From a virus (lineage: Duplodnaviria > Heunggongvirae > Uroviricota > Caudoviricetes): 9,320 nt of DNA. Shown here piece by piece: positions 1 through 8,043 of this stretch (its first letter is position 1; every line of letters begins with the position of its first letter). The position numbers and the translations under genes are program-made. The stretch lies in IMG/VR virus record IMGVR_UViG_2651869781_000010; one strand, given 5' to 3'. The notes under the pieces are model-generated. The model had not been told where the DNA came from. It was given only the letters and a program-made list of their open reading frames with translations, and made no database searches.

Positions 1-774
1 TATGTCAAAATTATCAAAATCGAAAGAATTGATTTTCTCATTAAATTCATCAAATTCCGCTTGTTTGATGCTTAATAAATCAGTTAACACCTCTTCTTCA
101 TCACCAACAAAGTTACCTACCTTTTCAATTAACTCTGATAACTTTTGTTTGTTTTTTTCTATTTCGTCACTAAGCTCATAATTACGAATTAAATTAGCAC
201 TATCAAACCCAAGCAGGTGACCTATGTATGGTTTCCAAAAAATGTGTTTTCCAATAAAATCTTTTAATCTAAATACATCAGTATAATCATCTTGCCCACG
301 CAGTGAATAGCCTAAGGCAGTCCGATAATCCCAACGCTTAATTACACTTAAATCAAAAAGTGCATCCAAACACTCTTTCGACCTCTCAAAGGGTAGCTCT
401 GGATAGTCCCATTCACTAACTGCTAAATCAGTAAAGTCTTGATGCTTCTGCTCATGTTTTATAATACTTATTTTTGTAGGTGAGGCAACTGAGCGACGAA
501 TCGTTACATAACCCCCTGAGTTAAGAGCCACTTCTAGATAAAAAACAAAACTCTCAAAAACATTAAAATTTTTAAATAAAAAATGATTTTTATTTTTTTT
601 CTTAAGTAAACAAAAATCTATTAGATCACATAATTTACTTTTCCCTAAATTATGCGTATCTTTGCCTCTATTCTCAGAACGTCTTATTTCACCGATAACT
701 ACATTAAGCCCATCATGAAACTTTATAGGACTAAAAACATCTTTTTTATTAGAGTAAATTTTTGATAGTTTCAT
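1..774 (-). CDS. ABC/SMC-type ATPase, N-terminal 258 codons only (gene continues past window start); candidate ATPase subunit of a Lamassu/ABC-3C-like system
   Basis: Hand translation of the minus strand from ATG at 774..772 gives MKLSKIYSNKKDVFSPIKFHDGLNVVIGEIRRSENRGKDTHNLGKSKLCDLIDFCLL..., which resembles the N-terminus of OLD/ABC-family ATPases (LNVxIGE ... GKS ... LIDF). The frame stays open to position 1. The ATG overlaps the TGA of the upstream 79-aa ORF (ATGA). The P-loop is non-canonical, with about 11 extra residues between GE and GKS. This ORF is absent from the supplied track because it is truncated. Confidence 0.55.
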   Translation of the reverse strand, partial: MKLSKIYSNKKDVFSPIKFHDGLNVVIGEIRRSENRGKDTHNLGKSKLCDLIDFCLLKKKNKNHFLFKNFNVFESFVFYLEVALNSGGYVTIRRSVASPTKISIIKHEQKHQDFTDLAVSEWDYPELPFERSKECLDALFDLSVIKRWDYRTALGYSLRGQDDYTDVFRLKDFIGKHIFWKPYIGHLLGFDSANLIRNYELSDEIEKNKQKLSELIEKVGNFVGDEEEVLTDLLSIKQAEFDEFNEKINSFDFDNFDI

Positions 775-1010
775 TTTTTAACCCACTCAATCAAATCATT
801 TTTAGAATGATATTCGATCAGACCTAATAAATATAACAAACCTAGTGCGGGGTTGAATAAGGAAATAGCTCGCTCATCATATTTCTCAAGTGCATCATAA
901 AGCTCAGCATATTTACCAAATTTAGCTTTGCGTAGCTTTTTCATTAAGAATGCAGCTACCGCCAAGACGGTCAAATCTGGATGTGAATTCTTATTAGGAA
1001 GCAAGCTCAC
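771..1010 (-). CDS. small (79 aa) helical protein, candidate middle component (LmuC/ABC-3C MC-like) of the three-gene system
   Basis: ORF from the track with GTG start at 1010..1008, preceded by AGGAG (complement of 1016-1020) at about 6 nt. It overlaps the upstream gene by 17 nt and the downstream ATPase by 4 nt (ATGA), indicating translational coupling. No recognisable catalytic motif. The functional label rests on size and position only. Confidence 0.55.
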   Translation of the reverse strand: MSLLPNKNSHPDLTVLAVAAFLMKKLRKAKFGKYAELYDALEKYDERAISLFNPALGLLYLLGLIEYHSKNDLIEWVKK

Positions 1011-1941
1011 AGCTATCTCCTATATCACAATTATAATACATATAGTAAACCATTATTCTTGTTAATTTTTTATTTTTGTGCAGATCTGAATCCCTTGCAA
1101 TCAGTAGTTCAATCATCACCTCGAGAATTCGATCAAAATCATGATAATCCTTTTTATAAACACATATTTTAGCTGCAAGCTCATCTGCGCTTTCAATATA
1201 TTTTTTTTGATATGCGCTATTATCAGGATGAGATAAAAAATCCGAAATTTCAGTAATCTCAGCGATTTTTTTCTTAATAAGCTCAGCGTAACTGTTGCTT
1301 AAGTTATTTATTTTATTTTTCTGTAGAAAATCCACTCTAAAAATATGTGATGAAATAGTCTTATCTGTTAATTTACCAAGAGATGTATTTATACCTATAA
1401 TAACTTCTGCCAGTTGTTCTGGATCGATATTAATAAGCACATCGAATGGGTTAAGACCGGCCATTTCAGGCACATGTGGAAATACCTTAAAGTACCTCTC
1501 CATAGTTTCTATCCCAATCAACCCTATGTTGAATTTATCTAACCCGGTTTGGGTACTTATAAAATCCAGAATGTTTTTATTTGCCTCAGCAGGTAGTCGT
1601 CTATTGGCAAACAACAAATAATTATTAATTTTATCTTCATCAATTAATTTTTGTATTTTTGGTAATTCTACATTCAAAACTGAGGTTGTATTACCAAAGA
1701 AATCAGCATCAGAAAATTTTCTGTTATGATTTATAGTATGCTTAGCCTGTATTATGGTTAAACCATCCCATGGCCTGGCTTTACTAGGGTATGCTTCAGC
1801 TACACCATCGAATCTTGAGTCACGTCCCCCATCCCGCCCATCAGCAAAGGATTGAGTTCCTATGCCTAAAAGATCATAGCAAAGGTAAACAACTAGGGTT
1901 TCAAATTGAAATGCCGATAAACTGCAGTAGTCATATTTCAT
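994..1941 (-). CDS. 315-aa protein with N-terminal Mrr-like PD-(D/E)xK nuclease motif plus a C-terminal helical domain of about 200 aa; candidate effector (LmuA-like)
   Basis: ATG at 1941..1939. The N-terminal segment ...SFADGRDGGRDSRFDG...(about 20 aa)...LTIIQAKH carries a DGGxD ... QxK pattern typical of the Mrr catalytic/restriction-endonuclease fold. It is the first gene of three overlapping genes. AT-rich codon usage matches the two downstream genes. Confidence 0.65.
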   Translation of the reverse strand: MKYDYCSLSAFQFETLVVYLCYDLLGIGTQSFADGRDGGRDSRFDGVAEAYPSKARPWDGLTIIQAKHTINHNRKFSDADFFGNTTSVLNVELPKIQKLIDEDKINNYLLFANRRLPAEANKNILDFISTQTGLDKFNIGLIGIETMERYFKVFPHVPEMAGLNPFDVLINIDPEQLAEVIIGINTSLGKLTDKTISSHIFRVDFLQKNKINNLSNSYAELIKKKIAEITEISDFLSHPDNSAYQKKYIESADELAAKICVYKKDYHDFDRILEVMIELLIARDSDLHKNKKLTRIMVYYMYYNCDIGDSCELAS

Positions 1942-2626: not shown

Positions 2627-3178
2627 TCACTCCTGTATATCGTTAATGTCATTCAGGCGTTGCTGAAAACGCAGATGTTGTGCCGGGGTGTAAGAGCCCT
2701 GGCAATCACGAATCATCCCGGGGTCTGGCATCAAACCGGATTCATCCAGGATCTCACGATAATCCCCGGCAATTTCAGGCGGTGTTATTGCCAGCTGGCG
2801 AACCAGAGCACTGCGTAATATACGGGACGCAACGTCAACCCCTCCGCGCCCCTTCAGGAACGGAGCCAGTGCAGATGTCAGGGCTGCCCCATTCGCCTGC
2901 ATAAAATTGCTGAGAGCAGCTTCTGTGCAGGCCTCCATCAATAAATGCTGCGAGTAAATGCATTCGCGAGCAGCACAGTTAATTTGCCATTTCAGCACAT
3001 CCAGACGTTCCCGCAGTAATTCGAGCTGTCGGGCATAATCTGTTGGTTTTTCTGTGGCAGCGAGGAGAGATGCTATCTGTTGTTCAACGGCTTTTCGGGT
3101 CTCACTATGTCCGGCCCACAGAATACGGGCATTCCGAAAACTGGTAAGTGCCTGGTCAGGTGTGCCTCGGGCCGTCAT
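2627..3178 (-). CDS. psu: Psu-like protein (polarity suppression / capsid decoration), 183 aa
   Basis: All-helical 183-aa protein. Segments KWQINCAARECI, FMQANGAALTSALAPFL and YTPAQHLRF resemble P4 Psu as I remember it (KWQVNQAAGRYI, FMQQHGTALAAALAPEL, FTPAQNMIF). Length is close to P4 Psu (190 aa). The ATG overlaps the stop of the upstream gene (ATGA). The comparison is from memory, not from an alignment. Confidence 0.55.
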   Translation of the reverse strand: MTARGTPDQALTSFRNARILWAGHSETRKAVEQQIASLLAATEKPTDYARQLELLRERLDVLKWQINCAARECIYSQHLLMEACTEAALSNFMQANGAALTSALAPFLKGRGGVDVASRILRSALVRQLAITPPEIAGDYREILDESGLMPDPGMIRDCQGSYTPAQHLRFQQRLNDINDIQE

Positions 3179-3918
3179 ACAGCTTTCTCCTTCTCAGCAA
3201 GTTCCTGACGAACCTTTATTTTATGCATAGCTGCCGGAGAGAGTTGATTACTGAAATCCAGACGCGCCGCATAATCCGGGGCAACTCCCGCCAGTTTAAA
3301 CACCGGGTCCTGTTCAGGCATCGCATCGTTAGCCAGAGCCGGTCTGGTGATATGTTTATGAATAAAGTCTTTCAGCACTGTGTCCGGGTCATTAACTGAA
3401 TTCACCACACCCACAACGGCACTGGCTTCCCGGCCCATTGTGGATTTAAGCAGGCTCAGCGTCTGAATAAGCGCTTTTCCATGCGACTGCATAAAATCTT
3501 CCCAGATTTGTTTTGCGCGAATATCCACAAGAATGTTATGCGCGTGGATATACTTTCCGGCTAATTCCGCAGCTTTCTGCGGCAAAAGTGCATTTTCGCT
3601 TTCCTGAGCCGCCAGCAGCTCATCAAAATCCTCAAGCGTTTCTCGTCCCAGCGCAATTTCCGTGCGCAGTTTTTTCATTTCCTTTGAGACCACGCCCTGA
3701 CTTTCACGAAACAGCGTGCGCCACTCCTCATTCAGTGTGTTCGTCGTGGCTTCCATTTCAGCGCGACGCTGGCGGATTGTCGCAATATTATCCGCTGCAG
3801 CTTTCTGCTGACGACGTGCTTCAAGCCATGCGTTTCTGGCTGTGTTCATGGTTTCCAGTGCCCGCTGCGTTACAGCCGGAAAAGTGGAAAGGTTGTTATT
3901 CACTGCGGTGTTGTTCAT
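3175..3918 (-). CDS. 247-aa coiled-coil protein, putative Sid-like capsid size-determination scaffold (assigned by size and position only)
   Basis: ATG at 3918..3916 with AGGAG 6 nt upstream. Helical, charged, Ala/Glu/Arg-rich sequence. It is the first gene of the late operon directly behind the Ogr-type promoter, and P4 Sid is 244 aa. No sequence motif was recognised. Confidence 0.4.
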   Translation of the reverse strand: MNNTAVNNNLSTFPAVTQRALETMNTARNAWLEARRQQKAAADNIATIRQRRAEMEATTNTLNEEWRTLFRESQGVVSKEMKKLRTEIALGRETLEDFDELLAAQESENALLPQKAAELAGKYIHAHNILVDIRAKQIWEDFMQSHGKALIQTLSLLKSTMGREASAVVGVVNSVNDPDTVLKDFIHKHITRPALANDAMPEQDPVFKLAGVAPDYAARLDFSNQLSPAAMHKIKVRQELAEKEKAV

Positions 3919-3952
3919 GACTTCTCCTGTCGGGTTGGTTCGTTACGTCAAT

Positions 3953-4008
3953 TGTGTCGTGGCTGACACAAGCACACTATCGGTGCTCAGTGTGTGGTGG
4001 CTGGCACA
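3953..4008 (-). promoter_or_regulatory. late promoter with two Ogr/Delta-type TGT-N12-ACA dyads (Psid-like)
   Basis: TGTGTCGTGGCTGACACA (3953-3970) and TGTGTGGTGGCTGGCACA (3991-4008) are near-identical, with centres 38 bp apart, and lie 35-90 bp upstream of the ATG at 3918. P2/P4 late promoters use a TGT-N12-ACA activator site centred near -55, and P4 late promoters have a second promoter-proximal site. Confidence 0.6.
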
Positions 4009-4096
4009 ACGGACGCTTGCGGTTATTCAGACGTGGCTATGAAAGCCAGCCAGATAAAAATACCCTCTGTTTCAGTCTGCTTTATGTCCCTGATGC

Positions 4097-4292
4097 GGTG
4101 GAACAGGTGAAACATGTGTTACTGCTTTGTTTTATAAAGCATTTATATACACTGCACCGGTGGAACATCGCGGGTAACAAGGTGGAACAGCGGATTGGCT
4201 GGCGTTACATCTGTTCCACCTCACTATTTCAGAAGGTGGAACAGGTTCAGCCCTGTAAAATACGGTTGTTCCACCTGTTTCACCTGTTACCC
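4097..4292. repeat. iteron cluster, candidate ori/crr-like replication element bound by the primase
   Basis: GGTGGAACA at 4097-4105, 4159-4167, 4181-4189 and 4235-4243. Variant GGTGAAACA at 4106-4114. Inverse copies TGTTCCACC at 4212-4220 and 4267-4275, and TGTTTCACC at 4276-4284. Close to the P4 alpha-binding octamer TGTTCACC. Located in the 400-bp non-coding gap immediately 3' of the primase gene. Confidence 0.7.
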
Positions 4293-4318
4293 TTAATAAA
4301 TAAGACTCACGCAAAGCC

Positions 4319-6991
4319 TTAACCCGGCACCTCGCTGTTGAAGACATAGAGCCTGCGGGGATTCATCTCTGGCGGGCGAATGGTTGTCTGGAGTTTGCCA
4401 TCAGTGGAGGGCAGCAGGTATCCACGATCTACGCACAGACGCGCCACCTTGCGCGGGTCAAATCCCCTGCAGATTTCTTTCCAGCCGGACGGCATGACAT
4501 AGAACGTAGTGACAGCTTCCGTGCCCTGCGCGGTACTGCCTTTCTCCACCCTGCGCCAGCCCACCATATTGCCGGGGCGGTTGCGCTCGTCATACCAGTC
4601 TGCAAAGCGGCTGTACTGATTCGCGGTAAAGAAACTGCGAACCTGCTCCAGTGCGGCGATATCTTCCTGATTGGCGGTGTGCCCGCGATCTTTCAGCCAT
4701 GCGTTCAGGCAGACGCGGGTTGCCCGCAGTGCTTCACCCTCAGGCCAGCCGGTGATACCCAGACGGGTTGCCAGTTCACCTGCCATCGCCACCAGTGCAA
4801 AGCGGTTCACAGCCCGGCCCACCTGATTGCCTGCATCTTTAGGAGTCAGGGCGGCAGCATATTCCTTCATCAGCGATTTTGCCTGTGCCGTTAGTCCGTT
4901 AAGATCAGCGGTCAGTGCTTTCAGCCACTCCCGGAACGGCGAACCGTAGTAGCAGGACGTGGCCCATTCAAGATGCTCTGCCAGAGCCTTGCCGCTGTCG
5001 AAGCCGTGCAGCTCCTCAAAAACGCCAAACTTCCCGGAATCGCTTGGGATCTGGATCATCCTGACTTCCATCCCGGCAAAAGTACGCTCACCGGCCTTTG
5101 CCGCATGTTCGGTCAGAGACAACTCGCCAGTTGAAAAGAACAACAGGCGCCACTGCTTACGGGTACGCAGCTCACCGTCCGTACCGGCACGGCCCTTGCC
5201 CTGACCGTTTGCCAGCATGTAGGCGATATTGCCTGCCTCGCGTCCGTCAACTTCCCGGATCTCATCAAGCATCATGGCGGCATCGTTGCGGCGGCTGGCG
5301 CATCCCTCCAGCGCGTTGCCGGTGGCCCGCCATGTCTGCCAGTAGTCAGGCCCGCCGCAGACGGAGGTTGCCGCTTTCATGGTGGTGGTCTTACCGTCTG
5401 TCGATTCCCCTTTTAGGTGGTAGCCGCCGCCGTCCATACCAACCAGCCGTAACAGTGGTGCAGCAAAGGCCAGGCTGACAGCAAATGCCACGCGGGAGTT
5501 GCCGGTACAGTAGCGGGATACATGCTCCCGCCATTCCTCTGTTGTGCCCGACACGCGGAAATCACGCCCCTGCACGGAAGTGGTCTGGAGAATGACACCC
5601 TCTGCACCTTCACCGCTGACCTCATCCTGCAGGACGTAAACCTGACCATGCCAGCCAGTACGACTGACGCAGGTCACGCGGCGTTCCGGTTTACACAGTG
5701 AGATATATTCCATCAGGCGTGCGCGTGCCTCACCGGTGGTGCTGATATAAGACAGCCCGTTAACCAGCAGTACCCGGCGCAGTTCCTCACCACTGCCGCT
5801 CAGCATTTCCATCGGCATCGCCCAGCGGCGACACTCACCCCACGTATCTTCCCATTCCAGCAGTCGTCCGAAGTTACCGCCATCGGCATCGCAGGTGATT
5901 GCCGTCACGCGCAGCGGGCTGCATATTTTGACGTTCTGGATCTCCGTCTCACCGTTGCGCTGTACCTGCTTTTCATACCAGAGATATTCCTGGGTAAGAC
6001 GGAACCCGTGCGGCAGTTGCGTGCGGCCTTCCCCGCACAGTACCAGACCGTTGCGAAAGGCTTCACGGGCACGGGTAATACCGTGCTCCCGATGAAAGTC
6101 ATTCCAGTCAGCCTTAATCTCTCCTGGTGGCAGGGTCATCCAGCCGCCAACAGCTTTTGCCGCCCGTTCAGCAAAGGCTCTGCCGGGATTCTCACCCCCG
6201 TCCTGAAAATCGTTATCACCGGCGATGATAATTTTTACCTCAGGCCAGCGTGCCCGCAGCGACTGCGCCACATTGGGCAGGTTGCCCGCAGATATGGCAG
6301 CCACTACGCATCCGGCAGTGAGCTGGCTTACCGTCAGCGCCGTAGCGTAACCTTCGGTAATCACCACCTGTACCGGTGGTTCAGACGGTAACGGGCTGAG
6401 CGACACAAACGCGCCTTTCATCGTGCTGCCGGGCAGTATGCTTTTTTCACCCGTCGGGGCGATAAGCTGTGCACCGGTCACGGCTCCGGTGTTGGTCGTG
6501 AGTGGTAACAGCAGGGAACCGGTAGGAAAATCCTTACCGCTGATATGCTGCACGCTTCCGGTCAGAGAGGCCGGGTATCCGGCGAACCCTTTTCCTGTCA
6601 GATAGGCGCTTTCTCCCGTGTGGCTCTCTTTCATCAGCGCCGCCACGGTAAGACCCATGTCGCGTTTAGGGGCTTTTTGTCTGGCAGGCTTAACAGGCAG
6701 TTCCTGCACATCCGGCACATTAAGCACCTGCGCCACCTCCTGCGCAGCCTTTCTGACGCTGTAACCGGTTACGAGCTTAACCAGATCCAGACCGTCACCA
6801 TTGCCACACTGGCTGCAGATCCACGTCCCGCGCCCGTCAAGGTCATCAAGGCGAAAACGATCCTTGCCCCCACATTTCGGGCAGGGACCGTGCCTGCCGT
6901 TTTCAGGTACATCAATACGCAGCATCTGCAGAATAACGGGCCATTTCCCCCGTGCGGCGGCTGAAATCTGCGTAACCGTCTGTATTGTCAT
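4319..6991 (-). CDS. P4 alpha-like primase/helicase (N-terminal zinc ribbon, TOPRIM primase domain, SF3/D5-type P-loop NTPase), 890 aa
   Basis: CPKCGG...CSQCG zinc ribbon near the N-terminus. VVITEGYATALT and IIAGDNDFQDGGENPG are TOPRIM acidic motifs. Walker A GESTDGKTT lies mid-protein. The ATG at 6991 overlaps the upstream stop (ATGA) and has a GAGGGGG Shine-Dalgarno sequence. The iterons lie just downstream. Confidence 0.9.
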   Translation of the reverse strand: MTIQTVTQISAAARGKWPVILQMLRIDVPENGRHGPCPKCGGKDRFRLDDLDGRGTWICSQCGNGDGLDLVKLVTGYSVRKAAQEVAQVLNVPDVQELPVKPARQKAPKRDMGLTVAALMKESHTGESAYLTGKGFAGYPASLTGSVQHISGKDFPTGSLLLPLTTNTGAVTGAQLIAPTGEKSILPGSTMKGAFVSLSPLPSEPPVQVVITEGYATALTVSQLTAGCVVAAISAGNLPNVAQSLRARWPEVKIIIAGDNDFQDGGENPGRAFAERAAKAVGGWMTLPPGEIKADWNDFHREHGITRAREAFRNGLVLCGEGRTQLPHGFRLTQEYLWYEKQVQRNGETEIQNVKICSPLRVTAITCDADGGNFGRLLEWEDTWGECRRWAMPMEMLSGSGEELRRVLLVNGLSYISTTGEARARLMEYISLCKPERRVTCVSRTGWHGQVYVLQDEVSGEGAEGVILQTTSVQGRDFRVSGTTEEWREHVSRYCTGNSRVAFAVSLAFAAPLLRLVGMDGGGYHLKGESTDGKTTTMKAATSVCGGPDYWQTWRATGNALEGCASRRNDAAMMLDEIREVDGREAGNIAYMLANGQGKGRAGTDGELRTRKQWRLLFFSTGELSLTEHAAKAGERTFAGMEVRMIQIPSDSGKFGVFEELHGFDSGKALAEHLEWATSCYYGSPFREWLKALTADLNGLTAQAKSLMKEYAAALTPKDAGNQVGRAVNRFALVAMAGELATRLGITGWPEGEALRATRVCLNAWLKDRGHTANQEDIAALEQVRSFFTANQYSRFADWYDERNRPGNMVGWRRVEKGSTAQGTEAVTTFYVMPSGWKEICRGFDPRKVARLCVDRGYLLPSTDGKLQTTIRPPEMNPRRLYVFNSEVPG

Positions 6992-7371
6992 ACTTCCCCC
7001 TCATACAACGTCACACCGGTACTGCAGAAGTCATCAAAGGCCGCCGGAAGCGTGCGGTACATCTCCGCCATCACTTCACAGCCGCGCGCGGTCAGTACCG
7101 GCGGCGCGGTCAGCAGTGATGGCTCCAGCATGTCAGTCAGCAGTGCCAGCGCGGCAGCGGCGCCCTGCACTTCGCCGTACTCGTTAATCAGTACGCACTC
7201 GATATGCAGCGCAATGGCCATTTCAATACGCTCCACCGTCAGGCTGTGCGGACCATACTGATCACTGCCAGTTTCGTTCAGCATTTTCTGCCGCCATGCT
7301 GAAGCAATAGCCCGCCGGTAAAGCGCGGTGGTCATTTCTACCGGGAAAATGGAAACCTGCGGCTGGTTCAT
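6988..7371 (-). CDS. hypothetical protein (127 aa), primase-operon gene
   Basis: ORF with ATG at 7371..7369, AAGGAGG upstream, and 4-nt ATGA overlaps with both neighbours. GC-rich codon usage matches the primase. No motif recognised. Confidence 0.6.
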   Translation of the reverse strand: MNQPQVSIFPVEMTTALYRRAIASAWRQKMLNETGSDQYGPHSLTVERIEMAIALHIECVLINEYGEVQGAAAALALLTDMLEPSLLTAPPVLTARGCEVMAEMYRTLPAAFDDFCSTGVTLYEGEV

Positions 7372-7652
7372 CTGGCACCTCCTTCAATCAGTGCGCAGCT
7401 GTGTGCAATATCCGTCAAATCTGCCAGCAGGTACTCCATCAGCGCGGCGACACCATGCGCACAGCCAGCGTCCAGTGCTCCGGCCTGAGACGGGTATTCA
7501 GAAAAGAGAAGCTGGAGCATGTCGCAGGCATTTTTTGCGCGGGTCAGCTTTCCGAAACTGTCCTCTGACAACCCATAGGCAAAAGCACCGGTATTGTGTT
7601 TTTCAGGCAAAGTGTGGCCCTGAGCACCGTTGTGCCCGTTTGAAATATTCAT
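7368..7652 (-). CDS. hypothetical protein (94 aa), primase-operon gene (position and size reminiscent of P4 epsilon, unverified)
   Basis: ATG at 7652..7650 with GGAG 9 nt upstream. The stop overlaps the next ATG. No motif recognised. Confidence 0.55.
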   Translation of the reverse strand: MNISNGHNGAQGHTLPEKHNTGAFAYGLSEDSFGKLTRAKNACDMLQLLFSEYPSQAGALDAGCAHGVAALMEYLLADLTDIAHSCALIEGGAR

Positions 7653-7683
7653 CGTGGATTACTCCGTTTTCAGCGGTATTTTG

Positions 7684-8043
7684 TCAGAGAAACTTTGAAT
7701 AGTGACCGTCGTCAGGCTCAGCAGAACGCCATATGCTACGCTCCCGCCAGCGGATAAATAGCACAGACGGATGCAGTGTCAGCGGGCCGGAACCACTACC
7801 GCCTGCAGGAGCTGGTGCAGGCTTAAAGAGCGGTACATCAAACAGGCGCGTATACCGCTGTTCAAACCATGCCAGAGGGCAGGAAGAAAGCTGGTTGTCG
7901 CTGTCATGACGTATCAGCACTTCACAGCTGAATTCAGGATTAACCAGCGCCACAGAGGGCGAGGCTTTAATTAATCGGATAATCGTGACCGTCCAGCCAC
8001 GTTCATGCTGCCAGCGTTCGCCGGGTTGCGGATAATTACGCAT
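7684..8043 (-). CDS. hypothetical protein (119 aa from the ATG), primase-operon gene
   Basis: The track ORF starts at a TTG at 8073. The ATG at 8043..8041 (MRNYPQPGERW...) with GGAGG 5-6 nt upstream is preferred. Contains a Pro/Gly-rich linker (KPAPAPAGGSGSGP). Confidence 0.55.
   Translation of the reverse strand: MRNYPQPGERWQHERGWTVTIIRLIKASPSVALVNPEFSCEVLIRHDSDNQLSSCPLAWFEQRYTRLFDVPLFKPAPAPAGGSGSGPLTLHPSVLFIRWRERSIWRSAEPDDGHYSKFL

Follow-up and report, generated by a model that had tools for sequence, protein, structure and literature searches.

We analysed a 9,320-nucleotide stretch of viral DNA (IMG/VR record IMGVR_UViG_2651869781_000010), hereafter the window, which derives from a P4-like satellite prophage of Escherichia coli. 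All relevant genes lie on the minus strand and follow one another, in the order of transcription, as an AlpA-like gene, small genes, a primase-helicase gene, a noncoding repeat array, a sid homologue, psu, delta/Ogr and two ABC-3C genes. The genes and main features are given below.

8957-8682, minus strand: AlpA-like gene
7371-6988, minus strand: DUF5375 gene, among the small genes before the primase gene
4319..6991, minus strand: primase-helicase gene (890 aa), candidate initiator, assigned from Pfam, PHROGs and PDB sequence matches
4322..4591, minus strand: predicted winged helix of the primase-helicase (aa 801-890), candidate iteron reader
4097..4293, no strand assigned: iteron array and candidate origin, 9-bp GGTG-N-AACA in both orientations, with position and architecture kept in relatives
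3953..4008, minus strand: late promoter of the sid type, containing a pair of TGT-N12-ACA dyads at 3953-3970 and 3991-4008, in register with the P4 Psid region
3175..3918, minus strand: sid homologue, the first gene past the array (24% identical to P4 Sid, E=1e-12; PHROG 6165)
3178-2627, minus strand: psu
2630-2349, minus strand: delta/Ogr zinc-finger gene
771-1941, minus strand: two ABC-3C (ABC-three-component) defence genes in the variable region after delta

The sid homologue also showed a weak match to the Psu Pfam family, and its RefSeq names vary among "septation initiation protein", "phage polarity suppression protein" and "phage capsid morphogenesis protein". The ABC-3C pair encodes a 315-aa protein with a CTD12 domain and a 79-aa MC8/MC6 middle component, and the variable region after delta is a known place of defence cargo in P4-like satellites. 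The complete element was located in the E. coli genome CP025856, where it extends from the integrase at a tRNA-Arg gene through delta; the integrase and att ends of this element lie approximately 5-6 kb from the array. In that genome (positions 4743-7722 of the extracted locus), delta is split by the IS66-family insertion ISCro1 and the element is otherwise identical; delta is intact in the window. The TGT-N12-ACA dyad is the binding motif of delta/Ogr activators in the P2/P4 system. If the distal dyad is centred near -55, the proximal one would be placed near -18, as are the two delta sites of P4 late promoters. The edge of the array is located approximately 90 bp upstream of this late promoter, which is separate from the array and marks the boundary of the candidate origin. 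Neither known RNA families or tRNAs nor the P2/P4 cos 19-mer was found within the window.

A search for GGTGRAACA returned eight exact matches, all within 4097-4284 (188 bp) and none elsewhere in the window or in the complete element, against a mean of 0.17 and a maximum of 2 in dinucleotide-preserving shuffles of the window. Five of these copies are on the plus strand (starting at 4097, 4106, 4159, 4181 and 4235) and three on the minus strand (4212-4220, 4267-4275 and 4276-4284). Alignment with relatives added three degenerate iterons, namely CGGGTAACA at 4171-4179 (plus), CGTTACATC at 4203-4211 (minus) and TGTTACCCT at 4285-4293 (minus), and 4117-4125 is a possible fourth. The total of about 12 (eight exact and three or four degenerate) equals that in relatives. 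A preliminary description of this DNA, made from the sequence alone, had reported eight or more 9-bp iterons in both orientations at 4097-4292, and the degenerate copies bear out this wording. The array is arranged as follows.

4097..4114, plus strand: distal abutting pair GGTGGAACA GGTGAAACA at 9-bp spacing, between the AT-rich segment and sid
4115..4158, no strand assigned: AT-rich segment of 44 bp, candidate first strand-opening site, from GC content, duplex stability and relatives
4159..4167, plus strand: exact iteron GGTGGAACA
4171..4189, plus strand: iteron pair of degenerate CGGGTAACA (4171-4179) and exact GGTGGAACA (4181-4189), from alignment with relatives
4203..4220, minus strand: iteron pair of exact GGTGGAACA (4212-4220) and degenerate GATGTAACG (4203-4211)
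4235..4243, plus strand: lone exact iteron GGTGGAACA
4267..4293, minus strand: proximal triple AGGGTAACA GGTGAAACA GGTGGAACA at 9-bp spacing

The repeat search recovered the distal pair at 4097-4114 as the inverted counterpart of 4267-4284, and a triple at the proximal position is present in nearly all relatives. At the degenerate site 4203-4211, where the minus strand reads GATGTAACG, relatives read GGTGGAACG. The three degenerate iterons (4171-4179, 4203-4211 and 4285-4293) read GGGTAACA or GTAACG, which is the GTAACA-type word of sister lineages. They look like relics of an earlier specificity, or may be sites tolerated since position 5 is free.

The array begins approximately 26 bp past the stop codon of the minus-strand primase gene, with the nearest exact iteron 34 bp and the nearest degenerate one 25 bp away. 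RefSeq annotates no gene in the gap 3919-4318 between the primase and sid homologues, and close relatives are distinguished by a 1-bp indel within it; the gap is therefore noncoding. The earlier placement of the array in a noncoding gap directly downstream of the primase gene was thus correct. No second iteron cluster was found in the window, even when two mismatches were allowed (background matches only), or in the complete element of CP025856 scanned from the integrase to delta. The repeat search revealed no long direct repeats at the array, including the 120-bp crr type, and DnaA boxes occurred at chance level without a cluster. Neither sigma-70 promoters nor intrinsic terminators were detected in 3850-4400. 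P4 has an annotated terminator after alpha, whereas none of the intrinsic type was detected here from the primase operon to sid. Transcription may read through into the late operon or be blocked by an origin-bound protein.

The AT-rich segment contains the weakest 30-bp duplex of the gap, which ranks in the top 3.3% across the whole window, and GC content falls to 22.5% in 4110-4149. Relatives have an AT-rich spacer at the equivalent place in the array. The segment is off-centre, with two to three iterons on one side and about nine on the other. The iterons directly flanking it share one direction, and the outer sets at 4097-4114 (plus) and 4267-4293 (minus) are unequal and inverted relative to each other.

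We then examined the protein encoded next to the array. The primase-helicase consists of a Zn ribbon (aa 32-68), a Toprim domain (aa 209-304), a DUF927 domain (aa 330-612; Pfam E=2e-90) and a C-terminal domain (aa 641-890). In a BLASTP comparison, it was 38% identical to P4 alpha over residues 5-316, corresponding to the Zn ribbon and Toprim, and nothing significant was found beyond. After its primase part P4 alpha carries D5_N, DUF5906 and Pox_D5, whereas the window protein carries DUF927 instead, and hhalign gave a probability of 0.09% for a relationship between the primase-helicase and the alpha C-terminus. The only PDB sequence matches were 8TCH, the replication initiator-helicase of SaPIbov1, and 5DGK, the SCCmec helicase Cch. 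The C-terminal domain resembles both by fold as well, in models of moderate confidence (pLDDT 74-76). The protein is a fusion of a P4-alpha-like primase (1-316) with a DUF927 helicase that bears a SaPI-Rep-like C-terminal winged helix.

To place the array in a wider context, we surveyed one genome per species across Enterobacterales and obtained 55 loci encoding primase relatives of 57-100% identity. Among the 51 loci with enough downstream DNA, about 45 carry an array 3′ of the primase gene, beginning about 30-50 bp past the stop codon and reaching to about 250 bp. The arrays share an architecture (e.g., +++ - ++ -- + AT ---). In one locus, L016, the sites after the stop codon are 31+, 40+ and 49+, then 81-, 104+ and 113+, 131- and 141-, and 164+, followed by the AT-rich stretch and 196-, 205- and 214-. 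About ten different iteron words occur in this common layout: GGTGGAACA, GGTGTAACA, GGGGTAACA, TGGGTAACA, CTGGTAACA, GTGGTAACA, GAGGTAACA, GTGGTTACA, GTGGATACA and TGTAGTACA. Three more loci (L039, L047 and L056) have the array approximately 1.15 kb downstream, past an inserted integrase gene, with the word GTGGGAACA. In this subclade (57-62% primase identity; ~5650-7040 of the loci), a tyrosine recombinase gene separates the primase stop codon from the array, which contains 10-13 copies of GTGGGAACA and retains the architecture. A far more distant homologue, 32% identical and encoded by a 12-kb circular E. coli record, is followed 26 bp past its stop codon by three copies of GTTGGTTCA, an AT-rich stretch and three copies of TGAACCAAC. 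In most related loci neither sid nor psu nor delta was detected downstream, and yet the array is there, so that it accompanies the primase and not the late operon. DUF5375 is likewise absent or undetectable in many array-bearing loci. The comparison of iterons across related satellites that the preliminary description had called for thus yielded arrays in about 45 of 51 loci and about ten words. Its suggestion that the iteron sequence bears on replicon specificity agrees with relatives keeping the architecture while differing in the word.

Conservation was assessed in 11 close relatives whose iterons use the word of the window; they come from E. coli, Shigella, Citrobacter, Enterobacter, Pantoea and Pseudocitrobacter. 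Outside position 5, 62 of 64 iteron bases were invariant, compared with 65 of 98 spacer bases (Fisher p=1e-6), and position 5 was variable (G, A or T) in five of the eight iterons. Since iteron bases were conserved above spacers and position 5 was variable, we adopted GGTG-N-AACA as the working consensus. These results show that the array is under purifying selection with its fifth base free. The two iteron variants distinguished previously differ only at this free base.

Close pairs of loci with different words allowed us to examine which part of the protein changes with the iterons. The primases of a Proteus pair (L025/L028) are distinguished by 22 of their 900 residues, five of which lie in the winged helix (807, 846, 867, 883 and 887 in window numbering), and all eleven homologous sites switch from GGTGTAACA to TGGGTAACA, i.e. 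(T/A)GGGTAACA; beyond the array the loci are near-identical. A Xenorhabdus pair (L023/L024; 33 differences, with the wing residues 866-870 among them) switches from GGTGTAACA to (G/C)TGGTAACA, and a Pectobacterium/Brenneria trio (L030/L019/L020) from GTGGTAACA to GTGGTTACA or GTGGATACA. In these contrasts the primases are 94-98% identical and all iterons switch together. Distances over residues 801-890 were 0.057-0.159, compared with at most 0.019 in the helicase and the helical part of the C-terminal domain, and with 0-0.044 for the winged helix (801-890) of close pairs that share an iteron. The N-terminal 250 residues also differ in the switch pairs, but equally so in same-iteron pairs. The residues changed in more than one contrast (807, 846, 866-870 and 887) map to the beginning of the second helix and to the wing in the structure model. 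A Mantel-type test over all pairs, with helicase divergence controlled, gave no significant result for the winged helix (partial r 0.08, p ~0.15), and the covariation therefore rests on three independent close lineages. The pattern is suggestive rather than conclusive: the winged helix may read the iterons, or the 3′ end of the gene and the array may have been exchanged as one cassette. Either way, it suggests that array and winged helix are functionally coupled.

The closest counterparts of this arrangement are found in the pathogenicity islands of Staphylococcus aureus. SaPI Reps combine the function of a self-loading helicase with that of an initiator, the latter via a C-terminal winged helix, and this C-terminal domain recognises penta- or hexanucleotide iterons (PMC9371898). 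In their origins, 6-12 iterons surround an AT-rich region directly behind rep, with at least two iterons per side in opposite directions, and in SaPI5 a primase is fused to Rep (PMC9371898). The window shares with SaPIbov1, SaPI1 and SaPI5 a DUF927-type helicase with a C-terminal winged helix (fold match 8TCH), an array immediately 3′ of the initiator gene (here ~26 bp past the stop codon, and alike in ~45 related loci), 6-12 short iterons in two inverted sets around an AT-rich region and, with SaPI5, the fusion of primase and helicase. The differences are that the C-terminal domains are only 10-15% identical, that the iterons here are 9 bp long instead of 5-6 and form abutting pairs or triples at 9-bp spacing, and that the AT-rich segment is off-centre with adjoining iterons in the same direction. 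In addition, the fused primase is here of the P4 alpha Zn-ribbon/Toprim type, and the element that carries it belongs to the P4-like satellites of P2-type phages in Enterobacterales. The iteron length of 9 bp is a difference of detail and not of principle.

Gram-negative PICIs likewise have two iteron sets around an AT-rich region directly 3′ of the replication gene (PMC6092414). In EcCICFT073, the pri-rep-ori segment is a working replicon whose origin is needed for plasmid maintenance (Fillol-Salom 2018, PMC6092414). This element shares with ours the host genus and AlpA- and Icd-like neighbours, which are common to both elements. Its Pri-Rep (10242-12284 of our extracted locus, E. coli CFT073) carries D5_N/DUF5906/Pox_D5, the helicase type of P4 alpha, without Toprim, and its iteron is GGTAGACA; BLASTP of this protein against the window protein found no significant similarity. 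Because the helicase types are exchanged, the P4-like element here and EcCICFT073 appear as reciprocal mosaics of P4 and SaPI modules. Iteron plasmids with initiators of the RepA/pi type (pSC101, R6K, P1 and F) also place repeated initiator sites, read by winged helices, beside an AT-rich unwinding segment. They have direct iterons of 17-22 bp, non-helicase initiators, DnaA boxes and loading of host DnaB/DnaC. We rejected an origin of this RepA type for the array, which has 9-bp iterons in both orientations, a helicase domain in the candidate initiator and no DnaA-box cluster.

From the match in location, number of copies, use of both orientations, AT-rich segment and type of protein, we assign 4097-4293 to the SaPI/PICI kind; by this analogy it is very likely the replication origin of the P4-like satellite, used by the adjoining primase-helicase. 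It is the expected kind of element, here in a family where it is unannotated. By analogy with the SaPI system, winged helices of the primase-helicase would, after induction, bind the GGTG-N-AACA iterons to the left and right of the AT-rich segment. Hexamers would assemble at the array without a separate loader and open the AT-rich segment at 4115-4158. The helicase would then unwind the DNA, and the N-terminal primase of the same polypeptide would lay the first primers.

Because the element belongs to the P4 family, we compared the array with the origin of P4 itself. The two satellites share sid, psu, delta, a homologous late promoter and a homologous primase N-terminus. The P4 type 1 repeat is the octamer TGTTCACC (P4 record X51522), and the motif here, the 9-mer TGTTNCACC, is indeed one base longer, as had been pointed out before. 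The P4 word GGTGAACA equals the word here minus its free central base, so the GGTG and AACA half-sites are the same; TGTTCACC itself occurs in the window as one exact copy at 8043, at chance level and without a cluster. In both satellites abutting copies are 9 bp apart, and each origin starts off with three copies in direct orientation and then one in inverted orientation. In P4, crr occupies 4291-4590 just after alpha, and the ori iterons occupy 9310-9413, approximately 80 bp upstream of the sid promoter dyad. P4 thus has ori and crr ~4.7 kb apart, with crr formed by two 120-bp repeats, whereas a single array is present here. The alpha and sid operons diverge in P4 and are co-directional here, so that one array occupies the positions of both crr and ori, downstream of the primase gene and upstream of sid. 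The helicase and origin-binding domains of alpha belong to another family, and as the binding domain is not shared, the resemblance to TGTTCACC is left unexplained by it.

These likenesses could be read as pointing to a crr of the P4 type, or to half of a two-part ori/crr system, in which an alpha-like C-terminal domain would recognise a sequence shifted by one base. The array indeed directly follows the primase gene like crr and precedes the homologous sid promoter by ~90 bp like ori, its motif differs from the P4 octamer by one central base only, the abutting spacing is 9 bp in both and the primase N-terminus is 38% identical to that of alpha. Yet the whole element contains one cluster only and no 120-bp direct repeats, and past the primase the protein is of the DUF927 type as opposed to D5_N, DUF5906 and Pox_D5 in alpha (hhalign 0.09%), which makes such an assignment highly improbable. 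Of the earlier proposal of an ori- or crr-type cis element, the cis-acting replication element very probably stands, but its assignment to the P4 alpha type does not, given the protein type and the single cluster. The accompanying idea of an alpha system with a slightly different recognition sequence was not upheld, as only residues 1-316 are alpha-like and the C-terminal domain resembles SaPI Rep and Cch. A different relationship to P4 would be common ancestry of its ori and this array, with the half-sites, the opening pattern and the distance to the sid promoter (~80-90 bp) kept while the helicase/origin-binding module of the initiator was exchanged (D5/Pox_D5 versus DUF927/SaPI-Rep). We consider this descent unlikely, and the likeness of the two words may instead be coincidence. 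If it were true, two winged helices without detectable relationship would read nearly the same word, one of them with a free central base, and cross-talk or competition between P4 alpha and such satellites at each other's origins would be possible.

There are two further readings of the array. The array might serve mainly in transcriptional control, as operators or a roadblock between the primase and sid-psu-delta operons that is bound by the primase or another protein of the element, and not as a start of replication. Its place between two co-directional operons with no intrinsic terminator detected, just upstream of the late promoter dyads, would suit such a role, and initiators of iteron replicons often autoregulate. 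However, the array stays with the primase in most loci that have no sid, psu or delta, and with the primase family in distant homologues, and an AT-rich segment between inverted iteron sets is the layout of an origin and not of an operator. We therefore regard a mainly regulatory array as very unlikely, and a secondary regulatory role beside origin function as possible. The iterons might otherwise be bound by a different factor that the element encodes, for example AlpA, the DUF5375 protein or, in an arm-type manner, the integrase, with a link to the primase in position only. The three loci with an integrase gene between primase and array, and the non-significant global covariation test, are in line with this. 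However, the integrase and att ends lie ~5-6 kb away in this element, DUF5375 is absent or undetectable in many array-bearing loci, near-identical primases whose iterons have switched also differ in their winged helix, and the homologous SaPI domain is a known iteron reader (PMC9371898). Binding by such a protein has, in our estimate, only a marginal probability.

An origin read by the primase-helicase would, together with its reading domain, establish what makes up the minimal replicon in a large group of P4-like satellites that replicate without the alpha, ori and crr of P4. It would also present satellite replication modules as mosaics, with a P4 primase joined to a SaPI-type Rep here and a P4-type helicase in EcCICFT073. 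Natural swaps of specificity, such as that of the Proteus pair with its 22 changed residues and five in the winged helix, offer a way to learn how this winged helix reads DNA. Knowledge of the origin would also bear on the question of which satellites are able to amplify in the same cell. More modestly than the common descent considered above, concerted switching of iterons and winged helix may keep the replicons of co-resident satellites private. Current understanding is not overturned by these results; the origin will not surprise a specialist, and its value lies in a natural system for the study of origin specificity. Our search of the literature found no paper on iterons or origins of DUF927-type P4-like satellites, within a searchable coverage that is incomplete and does not prove absence.

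The element is common, with the array detected in 326 of 5426 complete E. coli genomes, and RefSeq annotates nothing at the array. Seven E. coli genomes hold the same array twice, and three genomes hold two elements with different iterons. Since pairs with different iterons are expected by chance and the same array occurs in duplicate in seven genomes, we discarded co-resident elements as uninformative on incompatibility. Phage records gave no match to the replicon. No small natural plasmid with this very replicon was found, and the high-identity plasmid matches all came from one 655-kb record. This E. coli replicon, labelled as a plasmid (AP026530.1 / NZ_CP128951.1), carries the same primase and array at 463695-466645 with 99.2% identity. 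A 7-kb Salmonella "plasmid" bearing a CTGGTAACA-type array was rejected as an autonomous replicon, as it is a linear contig of a fragmented assembly. The 12-kb circular record with the 32%-identical homologue (NZ_CP148430.1; 12,152 bp, labelled as a complete E. coli "plasmid") resembles an episomal PICI-like satellite and encodes an integrase, PerC, an Icd-like protein and an antirepressor. Its sole replication gene encodes a TOPRIM-DUF927 protein and is followed by 9-bp iterons, and this record may be natural evidence that the module sustains, or at least amplifies, a circle.
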